Source of the DNA: a virus
IMG/VR virus record: IMGVR_UViG_3300045988_155223
DNA: 37,274 nucleotides
Direction: 5' to 3' (one strand)
Shown: piece after piece, positions 3,075-20,764 of the stretch
Layout: each line of letters begins with the position of its first letter
Position numbering within the stretch: position 1 is the first letter of the stretch
Notes under the pieces: model-generated
The model's database searches: none
The model's input: the letters and a program-made list of their open reading frames with translations, nothing else
What the model was told of the DNA's origin: nothing
Made by a program: the position numbers and the translations under genes

Positions 3075-6000
3075 ATGGCAGGAAAGATAAGAAACGAGGA
3101 TTTGCAGCTGAACATCATCGTAAATGGCGATGTTGGGCGCAAGCGTATATTGGAGTTGGAGCAGACGATGCGAGATACAGAATCGTCGATAAAGGCCACC
3201 AACCAGCAACTTCAGGCAATGTCTGCCGCTGGCAAGAACGGAACGAAAGAGTACAAGGCTTTGAACCAGACTCTTAAAGACCAGAAGAAATCGCTTGAGG
3301 AGAGCCGCAAGCAATTTGACAAACTTCAGAGCGGTATATCTCTCGAGAACAAGACCATTTCAGAACTTCGCAATCAGATAAAACTCACTAATGCGGCTCT
3401 TGGCAAAGCTGTCCCGGGGACTGAAAATTGGAAGAACTTGAATCGCACATTACAGCAAACAAAAACGCGGCTGAAAGAGCTTACTGACCAGTCTAAAGCG
3501 GTCCATTACACAACTTGTGAGCTGTCGGATAAGTTCAGTAAGTATATCGTGAGCATATATGGTGCGATTGGCGCGATTCAAGGTGCTTTCAATAAATTTA
3601 CTGGGGCTCGTGATGCTTTCCTCTTGTATGATGAAGCATTGACTGATGCGATGAAGACCACGAATCTGACGAAAGACGAGATCCTGGATCTGAGCGCCAG
3701 CCTGAAGCAGATTGATACGAAAACACCTCAGAATGAACTTCTCGCTCTTGTCCGTGCCGGCGGCAAACTCGGCATAACAGGACAGGAGGATCTTCTCGGA
3801 TTTGCAAGGGCCGCTGATAAAATCAACGTCGCATTGTCCGAGGATCTTGGAGGGAATGCCGAAGCTGCTATCACAGCCATTGGCAAGATGACAGACATCT
3901 TTAGCCTTACCGACGAGTATGGTATAGAGCAGGCTATGCTGAAAGTCGGTTCTACTATCAATGAACTCGGCATGGCTTCCACTGCCAATGAGGGCTATAT
4001 CGTGGACTTCTCCAAGAGACTTGCAGGTATTGCTCCAAATGCAGATATCAGCATTGACAAGATATTAGGTCTTGCCGCTACTCTCGACAAATATGGTCAG
4101 CAGTCTGAGACTTCCTCTACAGCTATCGGCCAGACGATTATGGCGATGTTCAAGCGAACTGAGACCTTTGCACAGATAGCCGGAATTCCGCTGGAGGAGT
4201 TCTCTGAACTCTTGAAGACAGACGTGAATGAGGCCCTATTGAAAGTTCTGGAAGGGATGCAGCGCGGAGAGGGTGGCCTTGCGTCCGTGACCGCAGCAAT
4301 GGAGGAAATGCACTTGAATGGGCAGAGGGCAGCCACGGTACTCGGCTCGCTGTCGAAGCATACGGATGAACTGCGTTCACAGCAGGAAATTGCAAACAAG
4401 GCTTTCTCTGCCGGCACTTCATTGACAGCGGAATTTGCGGTCAAGAACAACTCTTTGACGGCAGAACTGGAAAAGCAGAAGAAAGCAATCCTGGAGGATG
4501 TGGTAAGTCTTGGCGAGAAGCTGAATCCGGCAATGTCGGAAGGAATGACGATTGCAAATGGTGGGCTGAAAGTTATTTCAGGCCTTATAGGCGTCGCTGT
4601 GAAACTACGATTGATTATATATGCTTTAACGGCGGCTTATGTTGCAAATACTATTGCTAAAAAAGCCGCGTGGTTCTGGTCTAAAGCACATCGGGAGGAA
4701 TTGAACAAAGAAGTTTTGACATTAAGAACTGCTAAAGCCGGAACAATAGCATTTGCTATAGCACATAACCTTTTGGCCGGAAATGTCAAGGGTGCCGTTG
4801 CTGCTTTTAAGTTATTAGGGAAAGCTATTAAGTCAAATCCTGTAGGGTTAATAGTAGGCGCTTTTAGCGCAGTGGCGGGTATTGCCGTTTCGGTTGTTAG
4901 ACGATTTAATGAAATTTCCAAGGCTCAGCGTGAACTCAATAAAGCTTATACTGAGACCATCGACAAGATCGGACGGGAACGTAGCGCCCTGGATAGGATG
5001 GGAAAGGCGGTGACCGATGCAAAGATTGGCTCGCAGGAACGTGCTGATGCTATCAAAAAACTTAACGAGCGTTTCGGGGATTATCTCCCTCATTTGTTGA
5101 CGGAGAAATCTTCGAATGAGGAGGTAGCAGCGGCATTGAAATTGGCGAACACTGAGCTTGAGCGGAAAATAAAGTTGCAGGCGATGGAAGAGGCGCAGAC
5201 TAAGATCTTCAATTCGTTGACAGATGCTGCCAGCAAGGCGACTGATTCTGTGATAGGCTTCCTGGAGAGGTGGAATCAGACAAAACTGACTACTTCTCAA
5301 ATCGAGGCGGTTACTAAGGCGGTGGTAGATTATAGAGAGGCTATGAAGGCGGCGGAAGCCGAGCAGGATCCTCTCAAGAAATCGGCAGCTTTGTCGCTTG
5401 CCAAATCGAATCTGGCTGGGAAAGTGACAGCAGCGGGACTTAATTATCCTGATATGTCGCGTGCACAGAATGCTCAGGAGGCATATTATATGCGTCCATT
5501 GGTGGAGAGTTTCGATAAGATTCTTGACGGCTTGAGAGTGGCGGCCGCTGCGGCAGTGCGGGATGAAGCGAAACTCAATGGCCTATATGGGATGGCTTCA
5601 TCTGGCCCAGTCGATGAAAGCAGCCCGGACTTCATCGGACCGACATTGAAGAAGACCACGTCTGCAACTTCTTCTTCTCCATCTGTGACAGACGACACCA
5701 CATCATCTGGAGGCAAGTGGTCACTCGGTTCGGACAGCCAGTATCTCCAGGCTGCTTATGACCTGAAAGAGCAATATAGGCAGGGCGACATTAAATCAGA
5801 GGACGAATACCAGAAGAAGATTCTTGAACTGGAGATACAGACGCTTCAAGAAAGAATTGCTTCCGGCAAGGAGACAGGAGACCAGTTGCTTGCTCTAAAA
5901 TCACAGTTGGCGGATAAGCAAATCAAACTCCAGAAAGACGAATCCGATGCTGAAAAGGCTCAGGCGGCAAAGGACGCAGCTGATAAAAAGAAGCAGATTG

Positions 6001-12257: not shown

Positions 12258-13640
12258 TTGGATATGATAAAGTATTATGAGAATGAAGCGGCTTACGAGG
12301 CCGCAGTAAAGAGCGCATTTGAGAGCCAGGTTTCCCTCATCGGCGCGAGCAGCGAGTGTAAGTACGATGGCCGGAATGTGGTGGTAGGATTGAACTCAGC
12401 CACTACCGGAAGTATTGCTGTTCTCGATGGTCTGCACGCATTGAGGTTCATAGCGCCTCAGACGTTCAGCTCGAAGAGTTTTATGAGCAACTACGAAATC
12501 GTGGGTGTGGTGGCCATCGGTGTGGATCATCCGGACTTCAGAGGCGAAGTGGCCGTAATGAGCCACCAGTTCGCTGGTGCCGCATTGTCCACCAGATACT
12601 ACTTCAAGCTGTCAGGTTATACGCTTGACGGAGCAGAGCACACGGGAGTCTTGAGCATCAGAAGCGCTTCTGACAATTGGGCAGCCAATCAGGACTACAC
12701 GATTACGTACAAGGCGGACAATATCGTCGCCCTGGTATCTCAGCTCAATGCCTATTTCAAGGCAAACGAGCCATTCGTCGCACAAGACTGGGTAGCGATA
12801 GCAGACACCAATGGCGACGTCCTTCTGCATTTCAAGTACACGACCTGGCAACAGGCTGCGTATAACACGGCCAAGTCCGGTTTCTCTGTCGTATCAGCGA
12901 TTGCTCCACAGTGGGAGTCCACGTCAAGAATGCTCAGAATGAATGGACAAAGAAATGGCGAGGGAACCATCACGAATATGCAGCGAGCATTGGCATACTT
13001 CAGGGAGGATAATTCTAATACGGCTTATAACCCGGCCACAGACGTTGCTACGGCCAAGTTGTCATATCCGATATGCCTGCCTGGTTATCTCGGCAAGTCA
13101 AAATATCAAAGTGACCACTGCGCATACCTGAGAGGAATCTATGGTGAGGGCGAGGAAGGATGGCTCAAGTTTATGCAGAGTTTTCTTCCTGTGCTTCCGT
13201 CGGAGTATGGGATATTTGACGACAGCACATACGGCACGGAGAAGCAGAACACCTACTATCTGGCCAGTCTCAAGTATGTCGGACAAGACGGCGTAGAAAA
13301 GTATGTCAGCCCGGCTGCGAGGTTGGCGGCGGAGCGTGGTTTCGGCCACGAACTGCTCAAGCGCGGCGAATGGATAATCGGCAAGATGTCACGCATATTC
13401 AGCATCGTAGGCCAGTTGCGTTATCCGACGACACCGGACAAATTCGCGGACAAGGTGAATGCGGCTCTCGCTGCAATAGGCGCACCTGCTCTCGGTAATA
13501 ACACCTACGTTTGGTCTTGTTCCCGGTATGGCGAGAACAACGGTTGGGTTGCGTATGGCGGCAACGGTTTTGCCACCAGCAGCAACTTGTACGGCTCGGG
13601 CCTGGCTGTTCCCCTCGTGCTTTTGAAAGTTACCGCGTAA
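12258..13640 (+). CDS. DGR target (variable) protein, likely receptor-binding protein with a C-type-lectin-fold-like C-terminus
   Basis: 460 aa. The last ~45 codons contain the VR. The C-terminal pattern YVWSCSRYGENNGWVAYGGNGF...VPLV resembles DUF1566/CLec-type DGR variable regions (WS.....naW.v.f.nG). Confidence 0.85.
   Translation: MDMIKYYENEAAYEAAVKSAFESQVSLIGASSECKYDGRNVVVGLNSATTGSIAVLDGLHALRFIAPQTFSSKSFMSNYEIVGVVAIGVDHPDFRGEVAVMSHQFAGAALSTRYYFKLSGYTLDGAEHTGVLSIRSASDNWAANQDYTITYKADNIVALVSQLNAYFKANEPFVAQDWVAIADTNGDVLLHFKYTTWQQAAYNTAKSGFSVVSAIAPQWESTSRMLRMNGQRNGEGTITNMQRALAYFREDNSNTAYNPATDVATAKLSYPICLPGYLGKSKYQSDHCAYLRGIYGEGEEGWLKFMQSFLPVLPSEYGIFDDSTYGTEKQNTYYLASLKYVGQDGVEKYVSPAARLAAERGFGHELLKRGEWIIGKMSRIFSIVGQLRYPTTPDKFADKVNAALAAIGAPALGNNTYVWSCSRYGENNGWVAYGGNGFATSSNLYGSGLAVPLVLLKVTA
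13505..13619 (+). repeat. DGR variable repeat (VR)
   Basis: 115 nt aligning without gaps to 14242-14356. There are 10 mismatches and every one lies opposite an adenine in the TR copy. Confidence 0.9.
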
Positions 13641-14161: not shown

Positions 14162-14241
14162 ACCGGCAGTCCCGAAAAATCATAAAGGAGGCCCTCCTTC
14201 CGCGTAGCGGCAGGTAAGAGTAAGGTATGGGCCTCGAACAG

Positions 14242-14356
14242 CAACGTTTGGTCTTGTTCCCGGTATGGCGAGAACAACGGTTGGGTTGCGAATGGCAACA
14301 ACGGTTTTGCCACCAACAACAACTTGTACAACTCGAACCTGGCTGTTCCCCTCGTG
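14242..14356 (+). repeat. DGR template repeat (TR)
   Basis: Invariant-donor copy of the VR. It contains 26 adenines by hand count, mostly in AAC codons in the VR reading frame. It ends 17 nt before the RT start codon. Confidence 0.9.
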
Positions 14357-14373
14357 AATTATGGTTGTACGAA

Positions 14374-15651
14374 ATGGAACTCGAGACTCTAAAAGATGAC
14401 TACTACGGCTGTCGCTCCAACAAGAGGCGAAGTCTGGACAGCATTCATTTTTCGCTGCATTGGGAGAGAGACCTGATGCGGCTGCTTAGGGATTTCGAGG
14501 ACCGCTCCCTTGTTCCTTTTTTATATGGATTCATCAATCCCAATCCAAGAGACAGAGAAGTCATAGCGTGCCTGATGGAGATGAAGACGCTCCAGTATCA
14601 CTTCGATTATCACGTGCGTCCGCTCGTCGAGGAAAGACTGACTGACAGCACGTTCAACAACCGCATAGGCTTCGGATGCGACAGGGCTATACTGAAGGTC
14701 CGTGACGACATCCGTAAAGTCTCGAAGAACTACACAAGGGATTGCTATATAATAAAGAGAGACATCAAGTCGTACTTTCCGTCAACGGATCTGGACCGCT
14801 CATACGAGAGCTATCGTGCCCTCATAGAAGAGTGTATCGAGGACAAGGACGAGAAGGACGACTTGTTGTATATTCTTCAAAGAGTCAATTATGCCTATCC
14901 TCAGGAACACGCACGTCTGAGGTCTCCGCGATTCAGATGGGATGACATCATAGCTGCCGGGAAAAGCGTTATCTTCAATAACGACCCGAAACACGGAGCC
15001 TGCCTCGGCAACCAGTTCTGGCAGGTGGAGAAGAACTTCGCGCTGGCTGAGTTTGACAGGTTTCAGGTGGACACCTGCGGACTTCATTACACAAGATTTG
15101 TGGATGATATGGTCTGGGTGGTGGAGAACCTGCAGGCCGGACTCGCCCACGTCGCCACCAGCGAAAAGATGCTGCTGGAGGAATACGGCTATCAGATGCA
15201 CCCACGCAAGAGGTATCAGCAGCACTACAGCAAGGGCGTCACTTTCCTGGGCGCGAAAATCAAGTTCAACAGGATCTATGCAAGCGACAGGGCCGTAAGG
15301 AACTGCAAGATGGCCATTCGGAAATGGAACAGGCTTGTGTATCCGTCAATGCTCGGCCACTTCCTGGACAGCATCAACAGCTACCTGGGGAACTTCAAGC
15401 ACAAGAACGCCTATGGCATCATCAGAGACCTTGTCGATGAGGTCAGTCCGAAATGGGAGAAATACTGCCATTATAACGATGACCGCAGATGTTTCGAAGC
15501 GAACGAGGGATATAAGCACAATGACATACTGAAGAGGAAATATCATTTCAAGTTCAATAAAGACAAAAGGAGTAAAAATGACAAGACAAGAAATCGAGGA
15601 CAGAAAGAACGTCCTGTTCTCCCTCATTTTGGACAGGGAGGCGAAGCTTAG
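14374..15651 (+). CDS. DGR reverse transcriptase
   Basis: RT motifs are present: DIKSYFPS (motif 1/2), CLGNQFWQ (variant of the DGR-type LGxxxSQ motif), RFVDDMVWV (YxDD-box variant) and VTFLGAKI. ATG 14374 is preferred, because the ORF-track start at 14227 would translate the TR itself. Confidence 0.9.
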   Translation: MELETLKDDYYGCRSNKRRSLDSIHFSLHWERDLMRLLRDFEDRSLVPFLYGFINPNPRDREVIACLMEMKTLQYHFDYHVRPLVEERLTDSTFNNRIGFGCDRAILKVRDDIRKVSKNYTRDCYIIKRDIKSYFPSTDLDRSYESYRALIEECIEDKDEKDDLLYILQRVNYAYPQEHARLRSPRFRWDDIIAAGKSVIFNNDPKHGACLGNQFWQVEKNFALAEFDRFQVDTCGLHYTRFVDDMVWVVENLQAGLAHVATSEKMLLEEYGYQMHPRKRYQQHYSKGVTFLGAKIKFNRIYASDRAVRNCKMAIRKWNRLVYPSMLGHFLDSINSYLGNFKHKNAYGIIRDLVDEVSPKWEKYCHYNDDRRCFEANEGYKHNDILKRKYHFKFNKDKRSKNDKTRNRGQKERPVLPHFGQGGEA

Positions 15652-17247: not shown

Positions 17248-17277
17248 CGGCTACGCAGCGATGTGTGGCCGTTTTTT
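17248..17277 (+). terminator. Intrinsic terminator after the lysis cassette
   Basis: CGGCTAC-N10-GTGGCCG stem (7 bp, one G-U pair) followed by TTTTTT, in the convergent junction with the integrase gene. Confidence 0.6.
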
Positions 17278-18427
17278 AGTCCAGGATATCCACATTCTTC
17301 AGGTCTTCTTCTGCCTTCTTCCTGTTTTTCCCTACATAAATTGATGTCATAGCGACTGAACTATGATCTGCTTGCTGCTGCACTGATGTCAGCGGAACTC
17401 CAGAACTGACCATGTTAGTAATGCCGGTGTCCTTCAGCGAATAGAACTGCAGCTCCATTGGGAACCCGCAACCTGGGCGCACGTATTCCTCCCAATAATT
17501 CGATATCTTTCTGGACCATATCGGTTTCGGCCCGGGAGAAAAGTCATATCCGCGTCTATGGGAAAACAAAAAGTAATCCGGGTTGGATAAGTCCAATTCT
17601 CTTACATACTTCATCATGGAGTCCGGAATCGTTCTGTAGGACTCATTGTCATTCTTGGCAATTTCTCCACGAATATGCACCAGTTGCTTTCCTAAGGAGA
17701 TGTCCTCGCATTTGAGCAGGGCAATCTCTTTAGGACGTATGAAACAACAGTAGCATAGCATTACCATCACCAGATACGGGATATTTTCTTTCTCTAGATA
17801 TCCTATCAGCTTGTCCATCTCCTCTTGCGTGAAAGTTCTTCTGGTCTTTGCCGTGAGGCGCTTCGGCTTTCTTCTGAGTTTGTTGAAAGGGTTCTCTGCT
17901 ATATATTGCCTCTCAGCCATCCAATTAAACAATGAACGATAGAACCGGAGGTAGTTATTATATGTGGTTGCAGACAACTTGCTTTCCATATCGTCCAGAA
18001 AGTCTATTGCATCCGTTTGCGTGAAAGAACTTGTATAGTAATTGTTGACATACCCTTTCTTTTTTAGCCATCCTTTGAACGTCTTGATGAACGAGTTATA
18101 ACTTCTCATTGAGTTGGCCTCGCTCTCTTTTGATTTGATGTCAATGAATTTGTCAAGCACGTCGCTCATAAGGGCGAAGCCTTTAGGCATAGCCTCCTCA
18201 ATAAACGGATTCCATCCGAGTTTGAGCTTGAGATCCAGGGATGCGATTACGGCGCGCGCTTCCTTCTTTCGCTCGCTCAGCGAATCACCTCGATTGAATT
18301 TTATTCTGACGCGCTTCATCTTGCCTGTGGCAGGATGTTTACAACTGAAAGAGATATACCAAATTTTTCCCTGCGTCAGTTTGGGTGGTATATAATCAAT
18401 GTGCGGGAGAGGCGACGAAAAGAACAT
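17276..18427 (-). CDS. int: Tyrosine site-specific integrase (Bacteroides arm-domain type)
   Basis: N-terminal arm-binding-type segment KIWYISFSCKHPATGKMKRVRIKF, a SAM-like core-binding domain, and a C-terminal catalytic region with HSSVAMTSIYV (His and Tyr nucleophile). The start is moved to ATG 18427, preceded by an A9 tract. The 60 extra codons up to 18607 cover direct repeats that look non-coding. Confidence 0.88.
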   Translation of the reverse strand: MFFSSPLPHIDYIPPKLTQGKIWYISFSCKHPATGKMKRVRIKFNRGDSLSERKKEARAVIASLDLKLKLGWNPFIEEAMPKGFALMSDVLDKFIDIKSKESEANSMRSYNSFIKTFKGWLKKKGYVNNYYTSSFTQTDAIDFLDDMESKLSATTYNNYLRFYRSLFNWMAERQYIAENPFNKLRRKPKRLTAKTRRTFTQEEMDKLIGYLEKENIPYLVMVMLCYCCFIRPKEIALLKCEDISLGKQLVHIRGEIAKNDNESYRTIPDSMMKYVRELDLSNPDYFLFSHRRGYDFSPGPKPIWSRKISNYWEEYVRPGCGFPMELQFYSLKDTGITNMVSSGVPLTSVQQQADHSSVAMTSIYVGKNRKKAEEDLKNVDILD

Positions 18428-18767
18428 TTTTTTTTCTTTGCACAACTCCACAAGGGCGTCATACAAGGAAAAAAATTGTCCCGTTTTTGTCCCGTTTGAG
18501 AGACTTGAACTCTGTAAAATATTGGCGATCAGTCCATTATGGACTTTTAGTGGAGATGGGCGGATTCCCCCATTTTGCTTAAAATTTTTTAAGTCTTTGT
18601 CTTCCATTTACTTAAAAATTTTATAAAATCGTTTTATGTGGGAATTCTGTCCCGTTTGCGTCCCGGCATAGTGGAGAATAAAGTGTTCTCCACTAATTAT
18701 TTAGCGCCTTTTTGGACAGAACTTTCACTCCAAATCTTCTAACATTTGTTAGATTTTTTAAGCAGAT
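18428..18767. promoter_or_regulatory. attP-like region with arm-type direct repeats, an inverted repeat and an operator
   Basis: TTGTCCCGTTT occurs twice in tandem (18476-18486, 18487-18497), and TGTCCCGTTT occurs at 18648-18657 with a degenerate GTCCCG at 18660-18665. TAGTGGAGA occurs at 18548-18556. A 10-bp inverted repeat TAGTGGAGAA-N7-TTCTCCACTA lies at 18669-18695. TAACATTTGTTA lies at 18740-18751. Confidence 0.5.
18740..18751. promoter_or_regulatory. Operator-type palindrome TAACATTTGTTA between the STAS-like gene and int
   Basis: Perfect 12-bp palindrome identical to 1481-1492 and in the same family as 20511-20522 and 20535-20546. Confidence 0.5.
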
Positions 18768-19121
18768 TTATATCGACATCGAGGAAAAAATTTGCTCCAA
18801 ATCAGATATGGTTTTGGGACGTGAATACGGCTTCAGTGTTATCTCTTTGGTTCCGCTTTTCTGCGTTCTGGAAACTGCGAGATACATTTGCCGGAGGTCA
18901 TCGGACATATTCGAGACGGAAACATTGATGCCACTTTCAGAAGATTTCTTCAGTTCATTGTAGAACTCGTCCATAAAACTTCTTGTAGTAAACTGCACGC
19001 CTGAAAAATCCAAGTCAACGTCGTTTTCTTTATAACTATACACGGCAGAGAATATGTCGTGAGCGGATATCCTGTTCAGAATATCACGGCCGATAAGTTC
19101 TTGTATCAGTATTGTTCTCAT
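18768..19121 (-). CDS. STAS-like (DUF4325-like) protein
   Basis: DVDLDFSGVQFTTRSFMDEFYNEL matches the DUF4325 hallmark (hydrophobic-x-LDF-x-GV-x5-SF-x-DE). ATG 19121 lies 1 nt after the upstream gene's stop codon. The ORF track lists a TTG start at 19130. Confidence 0.6.
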   Translation of the reverse strand: MRTILIQELIGRDILNRISAHDIFSAVYSYKENDVDLDFSGVQFTTRSFMDEFYNELKKSSESGINVSVSNMSDDLRQMYLAVSRTQKSGTKEITLKPYSRPKTISDLEQIFSSMSI

Positions 19122-19122
19122 A

Positions 19123-20013
19123 TTATTCAACGTATTTCAAATAACTAAATGTAGGCATATTGTTCGGAATCCTAAAGGATACTATGGTTCCTTTGAATTT
19201 GATTCCTAACGGAAGTTCTATGTATTGCGCCATTGCCTTATTCGCGGCGAAAGCAGCGTCTCCAGAAGCCAGAAGATATTCCCCGGATAGTCCTTTTGTA
19301 AGCATTTTGATAGTAGTCCTCAAACCGTATCCACGGTTTTCTGTTTCAGGAAGATTCTTGGCTGAGATTCCTGAAACGGCAGATTGGAGGGCCTCTATGT
19401 CGGAGCCGATTCCGGCAGTGCGAGGATTTTCCGAATAACTTCCCAAAAGAGTACCTCCGGTGTCTGCAATGCAGATGTCCGTGTATCCTTTTGTCGGATA
19501 GCTCTGAGCTGTTATATATCCATAGGGAGAGCGTGCGTGTTCAACAATGTTGTCGATGGTCTCTCCGATTATATACCTTAATCCGTTTTCTACATTGCCT
19601 CCAAAACAGCCTTGGGTGCTTAGTATAGACTGTATAGCAGAAAGGATGGCGTCTCTCTTGTCAGTTCCTGCAATGTCTGTTGGAAATTTTATGACAGGGA
19701 TGTACGAGTTGCCAGAGAACTTTGCCATAAGAATCTTGAATTCGGAATCTCTCATTATTGAGGCATTAATACCGCCATCAGTAAAATGCACAGTGCTCAA
19801 GTATGAGTTTGTCGCAGAGAATGTTGGTTTCGGCTCAATGCTCTCTAAAAATACCAGTGCCGGCAATAGGAATGACGGCATAACGAAGCTTATTCCAGAC
19901 AGTGAAATATCTTGGTCTTCTGACACGGAAATCTCGTGGCAGAATTTGACGGCGGATAAGAATCCTCTGGAAAGTTTGTCGTCACGAACATTTATAATTG
20001 GGCGTATGGTCAT
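19123..20013 (-). CDS. GHKL-superfamily ATPase, SpoIIAB/RsbW-like kinase fold with a ~130-aa N-terminal extension
   Basis: N-box-like ETIDNIVEHA, G1-like ICIADTGGTLLG and G2-like NRGYGLRTTIKM. The start codon lies 2 nt after the repressor's stop codon. Confidence 0.6.
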   Translation of the reverse strand: MTIRPIINVRDDKLSRGFLSAVKFCHEISVSEDQDISLSGISFVMPSFLLPALVFLESIEPKPTFSATNSYLSTVHFTDGGINASIMRDSEFKILMAKFSGNSYIPVIKFPTDIAGTDKRDAILSAIQSILSTQGCFGGNVENGLRYIIGETIDNIVEHARSPYGYITAQSYPTKGYTDICIADTGGTLLGSYSENPRTAGIGSDIEALQSAVSGISAKNLPETENRGYGLRTTIKMLTKGLSGEYLLASGDAAFAANKAMAQYIELPLGIKFKGTIVSFRIPNNMPTFSYLKYVE

Positions 20014-20015
20014 AA

Positions 20016-20450
20016 CTATTTTTGACTCAATATTGATAAAAGTTTATTGATCTGAGCGTCTTTTTCTTTGATCTGAGCGTCTTTTTCTTTGATCTGAGCG
20101 TCTTTTTCTTTGATGCGTTCATCCAGAATCTCTATCTGGGCCTTCAGGACGTCAGGGGAGTCGGAATAATATTGGCGGTTGTCGACATTATTATTCGTGT
20201 TGTTATCACCAGATATGACAACTCCGGAGCCATTAGTGATTGTAGAAGGCTTAATCATATCTCCCTTTCCAAGCACTAGCCACTCTAGTGATAAATCAGG
20301 ATAATTATCTATAATAGCTTCTAGTTTATCCGCGCCTAAACTCTTGCCGCTATCCAAAAAACCAATAGCAAAGCCAGTTTTTTGATAAAAACTATTTTTG
20401 CTAATCCCTTTACTATTAAGGTATTGCTTTATTTTTTCTTTTTCGTACAT
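20016..20450 (-). CDS. CI-like phage repressor (HTH) with a C-terminal heptad-repeat coiled coil
   Basis: N-terminal HTH ending in DLSLEWLVLGKGDM, the characteristic WLLTG.G.M tail of Phage_CI_repr-type HTH domains. The C-terminus has three IKEKDAQ heptads. It is divergent from a Cro-like gene across an operator-rich spacer. Confidence 0.7.
   Translation of the reverse strand: MYEKEKIKQYLNSKGISKNSFYQKTGFAIGFLDSGKSLGADKLEAIIDNYPDLSLEWLVLGKGDMIKPSTITNGSGVVISGDNNTNNNVDNRQYYSDSPDVLKAQIEILDERIKEKDAQIKEKDAQIKEKDAQINKLLSILSQK
20049..20111. repeat. Perfect 21-bp tandem repeat x3 inside the repressor gene
   Basis: GATCTGAGCGTCTTTTTCTTT at 20049-20069, 20070-20090 and 20091-20111. It is in frame and encodes (KDAQIKE)x3 on the - strand. 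Confidence 0.95.
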
Positions 20451-20492: not shown

Positions 20493-20546
20493 TAACTTTG
20501 CATCGGGTTCTAACATATGTTAGAAGAAATGTTATAACAAATGTTA
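20493..20546 (+). promoter_or_regulatory. Rightward early promoter -7 box (TAACTTTG) followed by operators TAACATATGTTA and TAACAAATGTTA
   Basis: TAACTTTG at 20493-20500 matches TAnnTTTG. The palindromes lie at 20511-20522 and 20535-20546, with an extra half-site ATGTTA at 20529-20534. All sit between the divergent repressor and Cro-like genes. Confidence 0.55.
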
Positions 20547-20575
20547 GATAATCGCGGTAAATATAATGAAAAATT

Positions 20576-20764
20576 ATGAGACAGACGCAGAGGAAAGAGC
20601 GGGACAAGGTTATCAAGTCCGAGTACAGGGAAATGGTTAGGCGCGGTTCTCCGATTTGGGAGGCCAAGGAACAGCTGGCCGCGAAATACGGAATGTGTTC
20701 CCAGTCGATACATAGAATAGTCAATAGCAGAAGAGCCAAAAACAGGCAAGTCAAGAATAGTTAA
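20576..20764 (+). CDS. Cro-like small HTH protein
   Basis: 62 aa, basic, with an HTH-like segment KEQLAAKYGMCSQSIHRIV. It is the first gene of the rightward operon opposite the repressor. Confidence 0.45.
   Translation: MRQTQRKERDKVIKSEYREMVRRGSPIWEAKEQLAAKYGMCSQSIHRIVNSRRAKNRQVKNS

Follow-up and report, generated by a model that had tools for sequence, protein, structure and literature searches.

We analyzed a 37,274-nt stretch of viral DNA (IMG/VR record IMGVR_UViG_3300045988_155223, referred to at its full length as the window), and in particular two adjacent minus-strand genes, K and S, which encode a putative GHKL kinase and a STAS-like protein, respectively. The window represents a whole temperate phage of gut Bacteroidales and includes genes for a tape-measure protein, tail components, a lysin, a primase-like protein of 976 aa, a Peptidase_S49 protein and a reverse transcriptase. 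Four consecutive genes lie on its minus strand in the order repressor-like gene, K, S and integrase open reading frame (ORF); the spacers are 2 nt between the repressor-like gene and K and 1 nt between K and S. The original prediction, made from the sequence alone, had described the first three genes as a tightly packed unit, and the stops, starts and spacers that it gave were all recovered. The ORF tool placed the start of S at a TTG codon at 19130; this is probably not the true start, because all 27 aligned S homologues begin at the Met encoded at 19121. The coordinates of the features are listed in Table 1.

According to profile comparisons and a structural model, K is a STAS-like domain fused to a putative Ser/Thr kinase domain of the SpoIIAB-type GHKL class. 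The AlphaFold2 model of K had a predicted local distance difference test score (pLDDT) of 88.9 and a predicted template modeling score of 0.89, and its best PDB match by Foldseek was SpoIIAB (probability 1.0, TM score 0.70–0.78 on the target), followed by GyrB and Hsp90, in agreement with the SpoIIAB-like Bergerat fold that had been predicted. The motifs quoted for K in that prediction, ETIDNIVEHA (aa 151–160), ADTGGTLLG (aa 183–191) and GYGLRTT (aa 228–234), are present, and the GHKL boxes read E151-x3-N155-x3-H159 (N box), D184-x-G186 (G1 box) and R227-G228-x-G230 (G2 box). None of the residues named in these boxes varied among 99 non-redundant K proteins, and HATPase_c was matched by 18 of 20 K homologues (best 5.5e-7). 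On grounds of homology, K would be expected to have kinase activity. The N-terminal domain, which the original prediction had left unassigned, proved to be STAS-like: its profile aligned with the S family by hhalign (E = 2.2e-5 and 3.5e-5), and in more distant K homologues from phages the same domain scores above the Pfam STAS gathering cut-off. At position 43, Phe is found in 77 of 99 homologues, and P46, which sits where a phospho-Ser would be, is conserved in 94 of 99.

The K family comprises 3,955 clusters (50% identity) at E ≤ 1e-3, roughly 1,200 at E ≤ 1e-10 and 349 at E ≤ 1e-30, with nearly all members about 290–310 aa long. K matched PHROG 3364, a family of unassigned function (4.6e-25), and homologues bear JGI names such as 'anti-sigma regulatory factor' and 'anti-anti-sigma factor'. 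Nothing significant was found when the K and S family profiles were compared with PDB sequences, and the VapS/VapC and CapS entries discussed below were not among the matches. A further match, to the PADLOC model of DISARM DrmA (E = 1.4e-7), covered only 114 residues (positions 133–246 of the 1750-position model), and DISARM was ruled out because K has no helicase domain and no DISARM genes lie nearby.

The evidence from profiles and modeling indicates that S is a single STAS-like (DUF4325-type) domain followed by a short conserved C-terminal tail. The AlphaFold2 model of S (pLDDT 75.9) contains a confident beta-alpha STAS core, a segment of pLDDT below 50 at aa 88–102 and then a terminal helix. 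Its best Foldseek matches were the STAS domains of prestin, RsbS and the stressosome (probability 0.97–1.0, E = 0.009–0.07, about 65–70 residues), and 25 of 27 S homologues matched DUF4325 (best 2.6e-4), so that the predicted assignment held; the predicted signature LDFSGV...SFMDEF spans aa 37–53. The tail (aa about 88–117, approximately 30 aa) is conserved within the family and is probably flexible. Within the core, [T/S]46, R47, S48, F49 and E52 were 100% conserved in 93 non-redundant proteins, and D51 was conserved in 92 of the 93. In the model, helix 2 starts at residue 47 and is capped by T46, and by analogy T46 or S48 could be the phospho-acceptor of S. Weak matches of S to mCpol and CARF (E = 0.01–0.02, below cut-offs) were attributed to chance, and the PADLOC CARF match was judged spurious.

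The original prediction knew of no characterised counterpart of this pair. Chambers et al. (EMBO J 2026; PMC13373217) have since described CapK/CapS and VapKSC as DNA-damage-sensing immune modules. CapK, with a helix-turn-helix (HTH), STAS and GHKL architecture, is switched on by single-stranded DNA (ssDNA) and phosphorylates CapS, a STAS and winged HTH (wHTH) protein, whereupon adjacent immune operons are de-repressed; the pair is named 'controller of adjacent pathways' (PMC13373217). VapK (STAS-GHKL, 302 aa) phosphorylates the antitoxin VapS, a 116-aa protein comprising a STAS domain with phospho-acceptor Ser48 and a short C-terminal inhibitory region, and the PIN toxin VapC is then released; VapKSC protects against phage Bas42 (PMC13373217). 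Activation by ssDNA was shown directly for CapK and inferred for VapK, and an aromatic residue, F54 in VapK and W68 in CapK, was proposed to contact ssDNA at the groove between the STAS and GHKL domains (PMC13373217). The coupling of DUF4325 genes to a VapC clade was already known (PMC5499597). Thus, counterparts now exist, while the phage-borne two-gene form is not described in that work.

We compared K and S with the Escherichia VapS, VapK and VapC sequences, which were taken from the supplementary model files of PMC13373217. The K family profile (A1) aligned with VapK by hhalign at E = 2.6e-5 over 253 colinear columns that span both domains, and a broader, more diverse K profile (the A3 hidden Markov model) scored 36.9 bits against VapK. 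In these comparisons, F43 of K aligns with F54 of VapK. The hhalign match of S to VapS (E = 2.8e-4) covers 46 columns at the N-terminus. By alignment, and allowing for a possible shift of one residue, R47 of S takes the place of the phospho-Ser in VapS (S48) and in CapS (S54/S58), two residues before the conserved Phe.

We surveyed 82 loci of phage origin, of which 80 were IMG/VR contigs and two were GenBank phage records, as well as 80 GTDB species genomes; the scan alignment A1 biases the genomic survey toward Bacteroidales. S directly follows K in 81 of the 82 viral loci, the sole exception being cut by a contig end, and adjoins K in all 76 evaluable genomic loci; the two genes thus co-occur beyond this genome. 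Three Porphyromonas genomes carry the inverted order S-K. In all, K-S occurred in the genomes of 131 Bacteroidales species and on 130 viral contigs from IMG/VR. The neighbouring genes (four on each side) differ in nearly all of the 80 species genomes, with housekeeping genes among them, and clustering of the four genes on each side gave no conserved third gene, the largest cluster (five loci) being an alternative repressor allele. A phmmer search with Escherichia VapC found nothing below E = 1 in the window or in 170 loci. Likewise, the operon and ten further window ORFs that were scanned contain no PP2C phosphatase or sigma factor, and neither is conserved near about 170 loci. Neighbours were phage-like, relative to the viral set used, in only 3 of the 80 genomic loci, and at least 75% of the genomic copies have a non-prophage-like context. 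No integrase was detected near genomic copies with the window integrase as a single-sequence query, a search of low sensitivity, and a few Bacteroidetes-type integrases were seen by eye. Because so few genomic loci are phage-like, this branch of K-S is mainly a stand-alone chromosomal cassette of Bacteroidales that phages have captured repeatedly.

About 10 K lineages were distinguished among the viral loci. In the largest phage group (66 loci, resembling Bacteroides phage BF1-TP2), K-S follows the lysis genes. In another locus, L078, an HTH gene is followed by K-S and an integrase, and K there is 35% identical to the window K. A similar order has been reported for Francisella phage KIRK, in which the genes after CI encode a protein of 293 aa and one of the DUF4325 type (Fhv_0046/0047) (PMC7924643). 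In the archaeal prophage psiM100 of Methanothermobacter, the pair corresponds to ORFB/ORFC, of which ORFC passes the DUF4325 cut-off; both lie within the 'inserted fragment IFa' that distinguishes psiM100 from psiM2. Using VapK as a query, we found two-gene K-S pairs in three more temperate phage groups, all with S above the DUF4325 cut-off: Burkholderia vB_E188 (gp10/gp9, next to the integrase), prophages of S. agalactiae and S. dysgalactiae (Javan/phiGBSVK, at the right end after the lysin) and Marinitoga MPV1 (gp51/gp50, adjoining a serine integrase). Among these three, the N-terminus of K passes the STAS cut-off in vB_E188 and MPV1 only.

Several individual loci had unusual arrangements. 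In a metagenomic contig (L186, 1-4171), the 1266-aa protein P0151 joins a DEAD/ResIII helicase to a K module at its C-terminus. An S-like gene of 117 aa comes next, and the fusion gene itself begins at the contig end and may be longer. This fusion and the domain-level DrmA match suggest a nucleic-acid link for K. In L083-L090 (7079-9255), a GIY_YIG_2 nuclease gene (5e-28) lies upstream of K-S in the same orientation with a gap of about 50 nt. This neighbour occurs in one Bacteroidales species only and is absent from the other loci, and the arrangement may be a three-gene variant with a nuclease effector. In Parabacteroides sp. Marseille-P3160 (L115), K-S is flanked by a duplicated 5′ fragment (74 aa) and a full copy of the same glycosyltransferase gene, which suggests an insertion with target duplication. 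Finally, an orphan DUF4325 gene (96 aa) without an adjacent kinase lies at 2241-2531 in the early region of a related Bacteroidales prophage (L176).

We then compared the window with closely related phages. A sibling phage, L178, has a 90%-identical repressor, the same primase and the same integrase, and lacks K-S. By blastn, L178 matches the window as far as 20068, a point within the 3′ end of the repressor-like gene, and again from 18753, exactly the edge of a palindrome that thus forms the right-hand boundary of a swappable cassette. In L178, this 1.3-kb segment is replaced by 735 bp (4384-5118) containing a 39-aa ORF and, on the opposite strand, a 185-aa gene. The 185-aa product has a weak TrbL-like match (0.005) and is probably a membrane protein; it is an alternative moron. 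This different gene in exactly the same slot lends weight to the operon and moron character that had been proposed for the pair. Prophages with more distant repressor homologues end at the repressor gene and have no K-S. Conversely, L003, L004 and L091 keep K-S at 95–98% identity despite a different N-terminal half of the repressor; of these, L091 is a copy whose K protein is 95% identical, integrated in a Bacteroidales metagenome-assembled genome from a Hadza gut sample. On the basis of the L178 swap and the exchange of the repressor half in L003, L004 and L091, these comparisons indicate that K-S is accessory, dispensable and horizontally swappable prophage cargo that recombines independently of immunity specificity.

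The homology of the window to integrated copies ends at 18531 (L177), 18550 (L179) and 18563 (L091), with host genes beyond these points (blastn). The phage attachment site attP is therefore placed between S and the integrase gene. It seems to fall within the 5′ end of the integrase ORF as annotated (18427-18607), and the true start of the integrase is probably the ATG at 18427 (M61), downstream of attP; in the sibling contig L180, the integrase product was called as 383 aa. No tRNA was found at the attachment site. With attP at this position, K-S is the last element before host DNA in the lysogen, at the prophage end beside attR. The predicted location of the pair between repressor and integrase is thus correct for the circular map and does not apply to the lysogen, where attP splits S from the integrase gene.

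In the 144-aa product of the first gene, the N-terminus contains an HTH-like region, and the C-terminus forms a coiled coil whose three KEKDAQI heptads are encoded by three perfect units of a 21-nt tandem repeat (20047-20114). The lengths of near-identical homologues, 137, 144 or 151 aa, would fit the gain or loss of one 21-nt unit. A Pfam scan of this protein gave no HTH match and no peptidase S24 domain. It has 877 homologues, some of which are named 'XRE-family HTH' or 'helix-turn-helix transcriptional regulator' in their sources. The predicted CI-like repressor role is accordingly supported by position, homologue names and operator repeats, and not by a Pfam HTH match. In the otherwise 95–98% identical phages L003, L004 and L091, an unrelated allele replaces the N-terminal (DNA-binding) half and the adjacent operator region between break points 20497 and 20185, whereas the C-terminal coiled coil is kept; relative to the window, these phages look like modular hetero-immune variants.

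The palindrome downstream of the pair that had been noted in the original prediction (18740-18751) is real and extends further (18738-18753). The same 16-mer recurs in the divergent promoter region, exactly at 20509-20524 and with one mismatch at 20533-20548. In total, the pattern TCTAACA-N2-TGTTAGA has four matches in the window against 0.09 expected, and the palindromes near the module fit operator sites that bracket the repressor-K-S unit. The fourth copy, TCTAACATTTGTTATA (one mismatch), is located at 1479-1494 at the end of the ORF 1118-1483, far from the lysogeny module. Tentatively, the hairpin downstream of S would mark the end of the predicted repressor-K-S transcript; on the minus strand it has no T tract. 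Scans for sigma-70-type promoters and terminators gave counts equal to those of shuffled controls, Bacteroides promoters being outside the models of the scan. K-S occupies the 3′ end of the transcription unit of the repressor, where it was inserted, and from the 2-nt and 1-nt spacing we infer that it is expressed in the lysogen alongside the repressor.

Table 1. Positions of the genes, domains and sites discussed in the text (window coordinates)
Feature	Position	Strand	Remarks
Repressor-like ORF	20016-20450	-	144 aa; first gene of the operon; stop TAG 20018-20016
K	19123-20013	-	296 aa; ATG at 20013; stop TAA 19125-19123
K N-terminal STAS-like domain	19678-20013	-	about aa 1-112; from hhalign to the S family
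K GHKL/Bergerat ATP-binding domain	19159-19611	-	about aa 135-285; invariant boxes, HATPase_c matches in homologues
S	18768-19121	-	117 aa; ATG at 19121
Codons for T46-R47-S48	18978-18986	-	candidate phospho-acceptor motif [T/S]-R-S-F at the start of S helix 2
Swappable segment	18754-20067	-	1.3 kb; repressor 3′ end, K and S; replaced by 735 bp in L178
Distal operator-type palindrome	18738-18753		TCTAACATTTGTTAGA; 16 bp; 14 nt past the S stop codon
Hairpin	18669-18695		12-bp stem; between operon and attP/integrase; listed on the + strand
attP core (approximate)	18531-18563		point where homology to integrated prophage copies stops
Tyrosine integrase ORF	17276-18607	-	Pfam Phage_integrase 2e-18; 160-nt gap after S
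Two tandem palindrome copies	20509-20548		between the repressor-like gene and the Mor-like ORF
Mor-like small regulator	20576-20764	+	62 aa; divergent, in the Cro/early-activator position; Pfam Mor 0.002, below cut-off

The homology of K-S to CapKS and VapKSC, its carriage as prophage cargo and its placement for transcription with the repressor are well supported. Beyond this, we consider it probable, if only just, that K-S is a kinase–substrate switch of the CapK/CapS–VapK/VapS superfamily, carried as phage cargo, with a protective output in the lysogen. Under this hypothesis, ssDNA that builds up during the replication of an incoming phage or after DNA damage would bind the groove between the STAS-like and kinase domains of K, around F43. 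K thus activated would phosphorylate S on T46 or S48, where helix 2 begins, and the modification would alter the binding of S through its STAS face and C-terminal tail. Since no effector gene travels with the pair, the output would have to be exerted in trans, either on a protein of the host or of a phage, or else through K itself. The activation by ssDNA, the site of phosphorylation and the defensive outcome are here extrapolated from homologues. The most likely outcome for the lysogen would be protection of the abortive-infection or exclusion type. A protective role is favoured because K-S is dispensable for the switch and moves independently of repressor specificity, and because it occupies cargo positions in unrelated prophages, is found mostly outside prophages and has immune modules as its characterised relatives. 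The original prediction had offered two guesses, and the comparative data favour exclusion or abortive infection over a sensor for the lysis–lysogeny decision.

Several observations weigh against a protective K-S switch. The window K scored 16.2–16.3 bits against HATPase_c and HATPase_c_2, below the gathering cut-offs of 26.4 and 27.4, and the window S scored 13.4 bits against DUF4325 (PF14213), below the cut-off of 23. Neither NCBIfam nor PADLOC contains a model covering the K-S pair. An invariant Arg (R47) occupies the aligned phospho-Ser position, and S might not be a substrate at all; moreover, the S tail does not align with the tail of VapS. No effector is linked to the pair, and the defensive output is extrapolated from a homologue of about 17% identity. 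Finally, K-S directly follows the repressor in unrelated phages (the window and L003, L078 and KIRK), which could reflect a functional link to the lysis–lysogeny switch instead of a common slot for cargo.

One alternative, which we regard as unlikely, is a toxin–antitoxin or addiction module in which K is a toxic kinase acting on essential host proteins and S is a pseudo-substrate antitoxin or buffer, with defence as a secondary effect. A tight two-gene cassette scattered over unrelated sites in 131 species genomes with no conserved neighbour would suit such a module, as would the invertible gene order in Porphyromonas, the duplicated gene fragment flanking the cassette in one genome and the adjoining toxin–antitoxin pairs in phages (HicAB in L070 and BrnTA in vB_E188); in addition, VapS is the antitoxin in VapKSC. 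However, the toxin of the characterised relatives is VapC rather than the kinase, SpoIIAB-type kinases are highly substrate-specific, and the conservation of the S tail suggests that S binds a separate partner.

We also considered whether K-S acts as an induction sensor, in which K activated by ssDNA phosphorylates S, and S or freed K inactivates the repressor or acts as an antirepressor, resulting in induction. The close translational packing of K-S behind the repressor, the recurrence of the order HTH gene, K and S in L078 and KIRK, the identical operators that bracket the operon, and the lack of an S24 (LexA/CI-type self-cleaving) domain in the repressor are all consistent with such a sensor, and the homologous CapK/CapS is itself a switch from DNA damage to derepression. 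Nevertheless, L178 has a 90%-identical repressor with the same C-terminal coiled coil and the same integrase and lacks K-S, more distant repressor homologues function without the pair, and K-S remains 95–98% identical while the DNA-binding half of the repressor is exchanged. In the 66-locus BF1-TP2-like group and in the Streptococcus prophages, K-S lies after the lysis genes, away from the repressor, and at least 75% of genomic copies are outside prophage-like contexts. Furthermore, the CI of KIRK carries an S24 domain, and S has no DNA-binding domain. Taken together, these observations make an induction sensor rather unlikely.

An anti-sigma partner switch, in which K holds a host or phage sigma or transcription factor, S is the antagonist and the result is lysogenic conversion, appears highly unlikely. 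Among solved structures, the anti-sigma factor SpoIIAB matches K best, S matches RsbS/RsbV-type STAS domains, and the JGI names of homologues point the same way. On the other hand, no sigma factor or PP2C gene was found in the operon or in the ten other scanned window ORFs, and none is conserved near about 170 loci; moreover, K has a STAS-like domain that is absent from SpoIIAB and RsbW, and its architecture is closer to those of VapK and CapK, neither of which targets a sigma factor. Least probable of all is counter-defence, in which the phage copy would disturb host immunity of the CapKS/VapKSC type, for example with S as a decoy substrate or surrogate antitoxin: antitoxin-like genes are commonly captured by phages and L176 has an orphan DUF4325 gene in its early region, but the cassette brings a fully conserved kinase of its own, belongs to the lysogenic rather than the early lytic transcription unit, has an identical architecture at non-phage chromosomal sites and has no VapC-type toxin near the surveyed Bacteroidales relatives.

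The protective kinase–substrate switch thus remains our preferred explanation. We hold it to be unlikely that K-S is a self-sufficient, RecA/LexA-independent ssDNA or DNA-damage trigger employed by temperate phages of bacteria and archaea alike, which in this phage would inactivate a non-cleavable coiled-coil repressor and so induce the prophage, or that K is the killing effector of a minimal abortive-infection system; neither mechanism, trigger or killing kinase, has been described for CapKS or VapKSC. Outputs in CapKS and VapKSC are the DNA-binding domain of the substrate or a linked PIN toxin, and the K-S pair has neither. We take this as a sign that the family has a large 'effector-less' branch, as yet unstudied, which is traded as cargo among temperate phages. 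A partner of the S tail would reveal how gut Bacteroidales lysogens resist phages, or how damage is sensed without a cleavable repressor, and the sibling phage L178, which lacks the cassette, constitutes a natural isogenic control.

The window has some further features outside the K-S pair. The GC content of the lysogeny module is 0.37–0.45, compared with about 0.50–0.53 in the flanking phage genes, and a megablast search of the region against GenBank phages gave no match. A 120-nt candidate variable repeat at 13500-13619, at the 3′ end of a 460-aa ORF (12258-13640), is 91% identical to a second copy at 14237-14356, the candidate template repeat, and all core differences fall on adenines of the latter copy. 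This second copy overlaps or adjoins a 474-aa ORF (14227-15651) with a Pfam RVT_1 match (2e-7), and the repeats together with this ORF likely constitute a diversity-generating retroelement.

Among known systems, VapKSC resembles the present pair most in layout. K has the STAS and GHKL arrangement of VapK at about 300 aa without an N-terminal HTH, S (117 aa) and VapS (116 aa) both consist of a STAS domain with a short tail, and in both systems K precedes S with tight coupling. However, the identity is about 17%, the S tail is unrelated in sequence to that of VapS, no VapC/PIN toxin is found here or near the relatives examined, and the present cassette sits inside a phage lysogeny operon. The phospho-Ser motifs also differ, being 'TDS*SF' or 'TDS*AF' in CapS and 'AS*PF' in VapS, compared with [T/S]46-R47-S48-F49 here. 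With CapKS, the pair shares the logic of a STAS-GHKL kinase and a STAS substrate, and both occur in mobile or immune gene neighbourhoods. Nevertheless, K starts directly with its STAS-like domain (the VapK alignment begins at aa 18–22) and lacks the N-terminal HTH, and S lacks the wHTH of CapS and cannot be a DNA-binding repressor; for these reasons, the pair is not CapKS. In addition, the pair is followed by an operator, a hairpin, attP and the integrase gene rather than by an immune operon (CBASS, Bub or Thoeris).

SpoIIAB/SpoIIAA and RsbW/RsbV provide the best structural matches, and like K-S they couple a GHKL Ser kinase to a substrate of the STAS type, with hydroxyl residues conserved at the same position, the N-terminal end of helix 2. 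They differ in that K has an extra N-terminal STAS-like domain and S an extra conserved tail. The original prediction had invoked the logic of bacterial partner switching; since no cognate sigma factor or PP2C phosphatase is linked, the pair is not a classical partner-switching module. Temperate phages that share the two-gene K-S architecture are psiM100, BF1-TP2 (gp43/gp42), KIRK, vB_E188, Javan/phiGBSVK and MPV1, with identity to the window K ranging from 41% (BF1-TP2) down to profile-only similarity. These prophage pairs usually lie beside an integrase, an att site, a repressor or the end of the lysis module. Their annotations go no further than hypothetical, ATP-binding or DUF4325 protein, and the pairs are so far unstudied. 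New alongside CapKS and VapKSC is a two-gene branch that is effector-less and has a [T/S]-R-S-F motif of its own; it is widespread in Bacteroidales and recurs in temperate phages of both bacteria and archaea.

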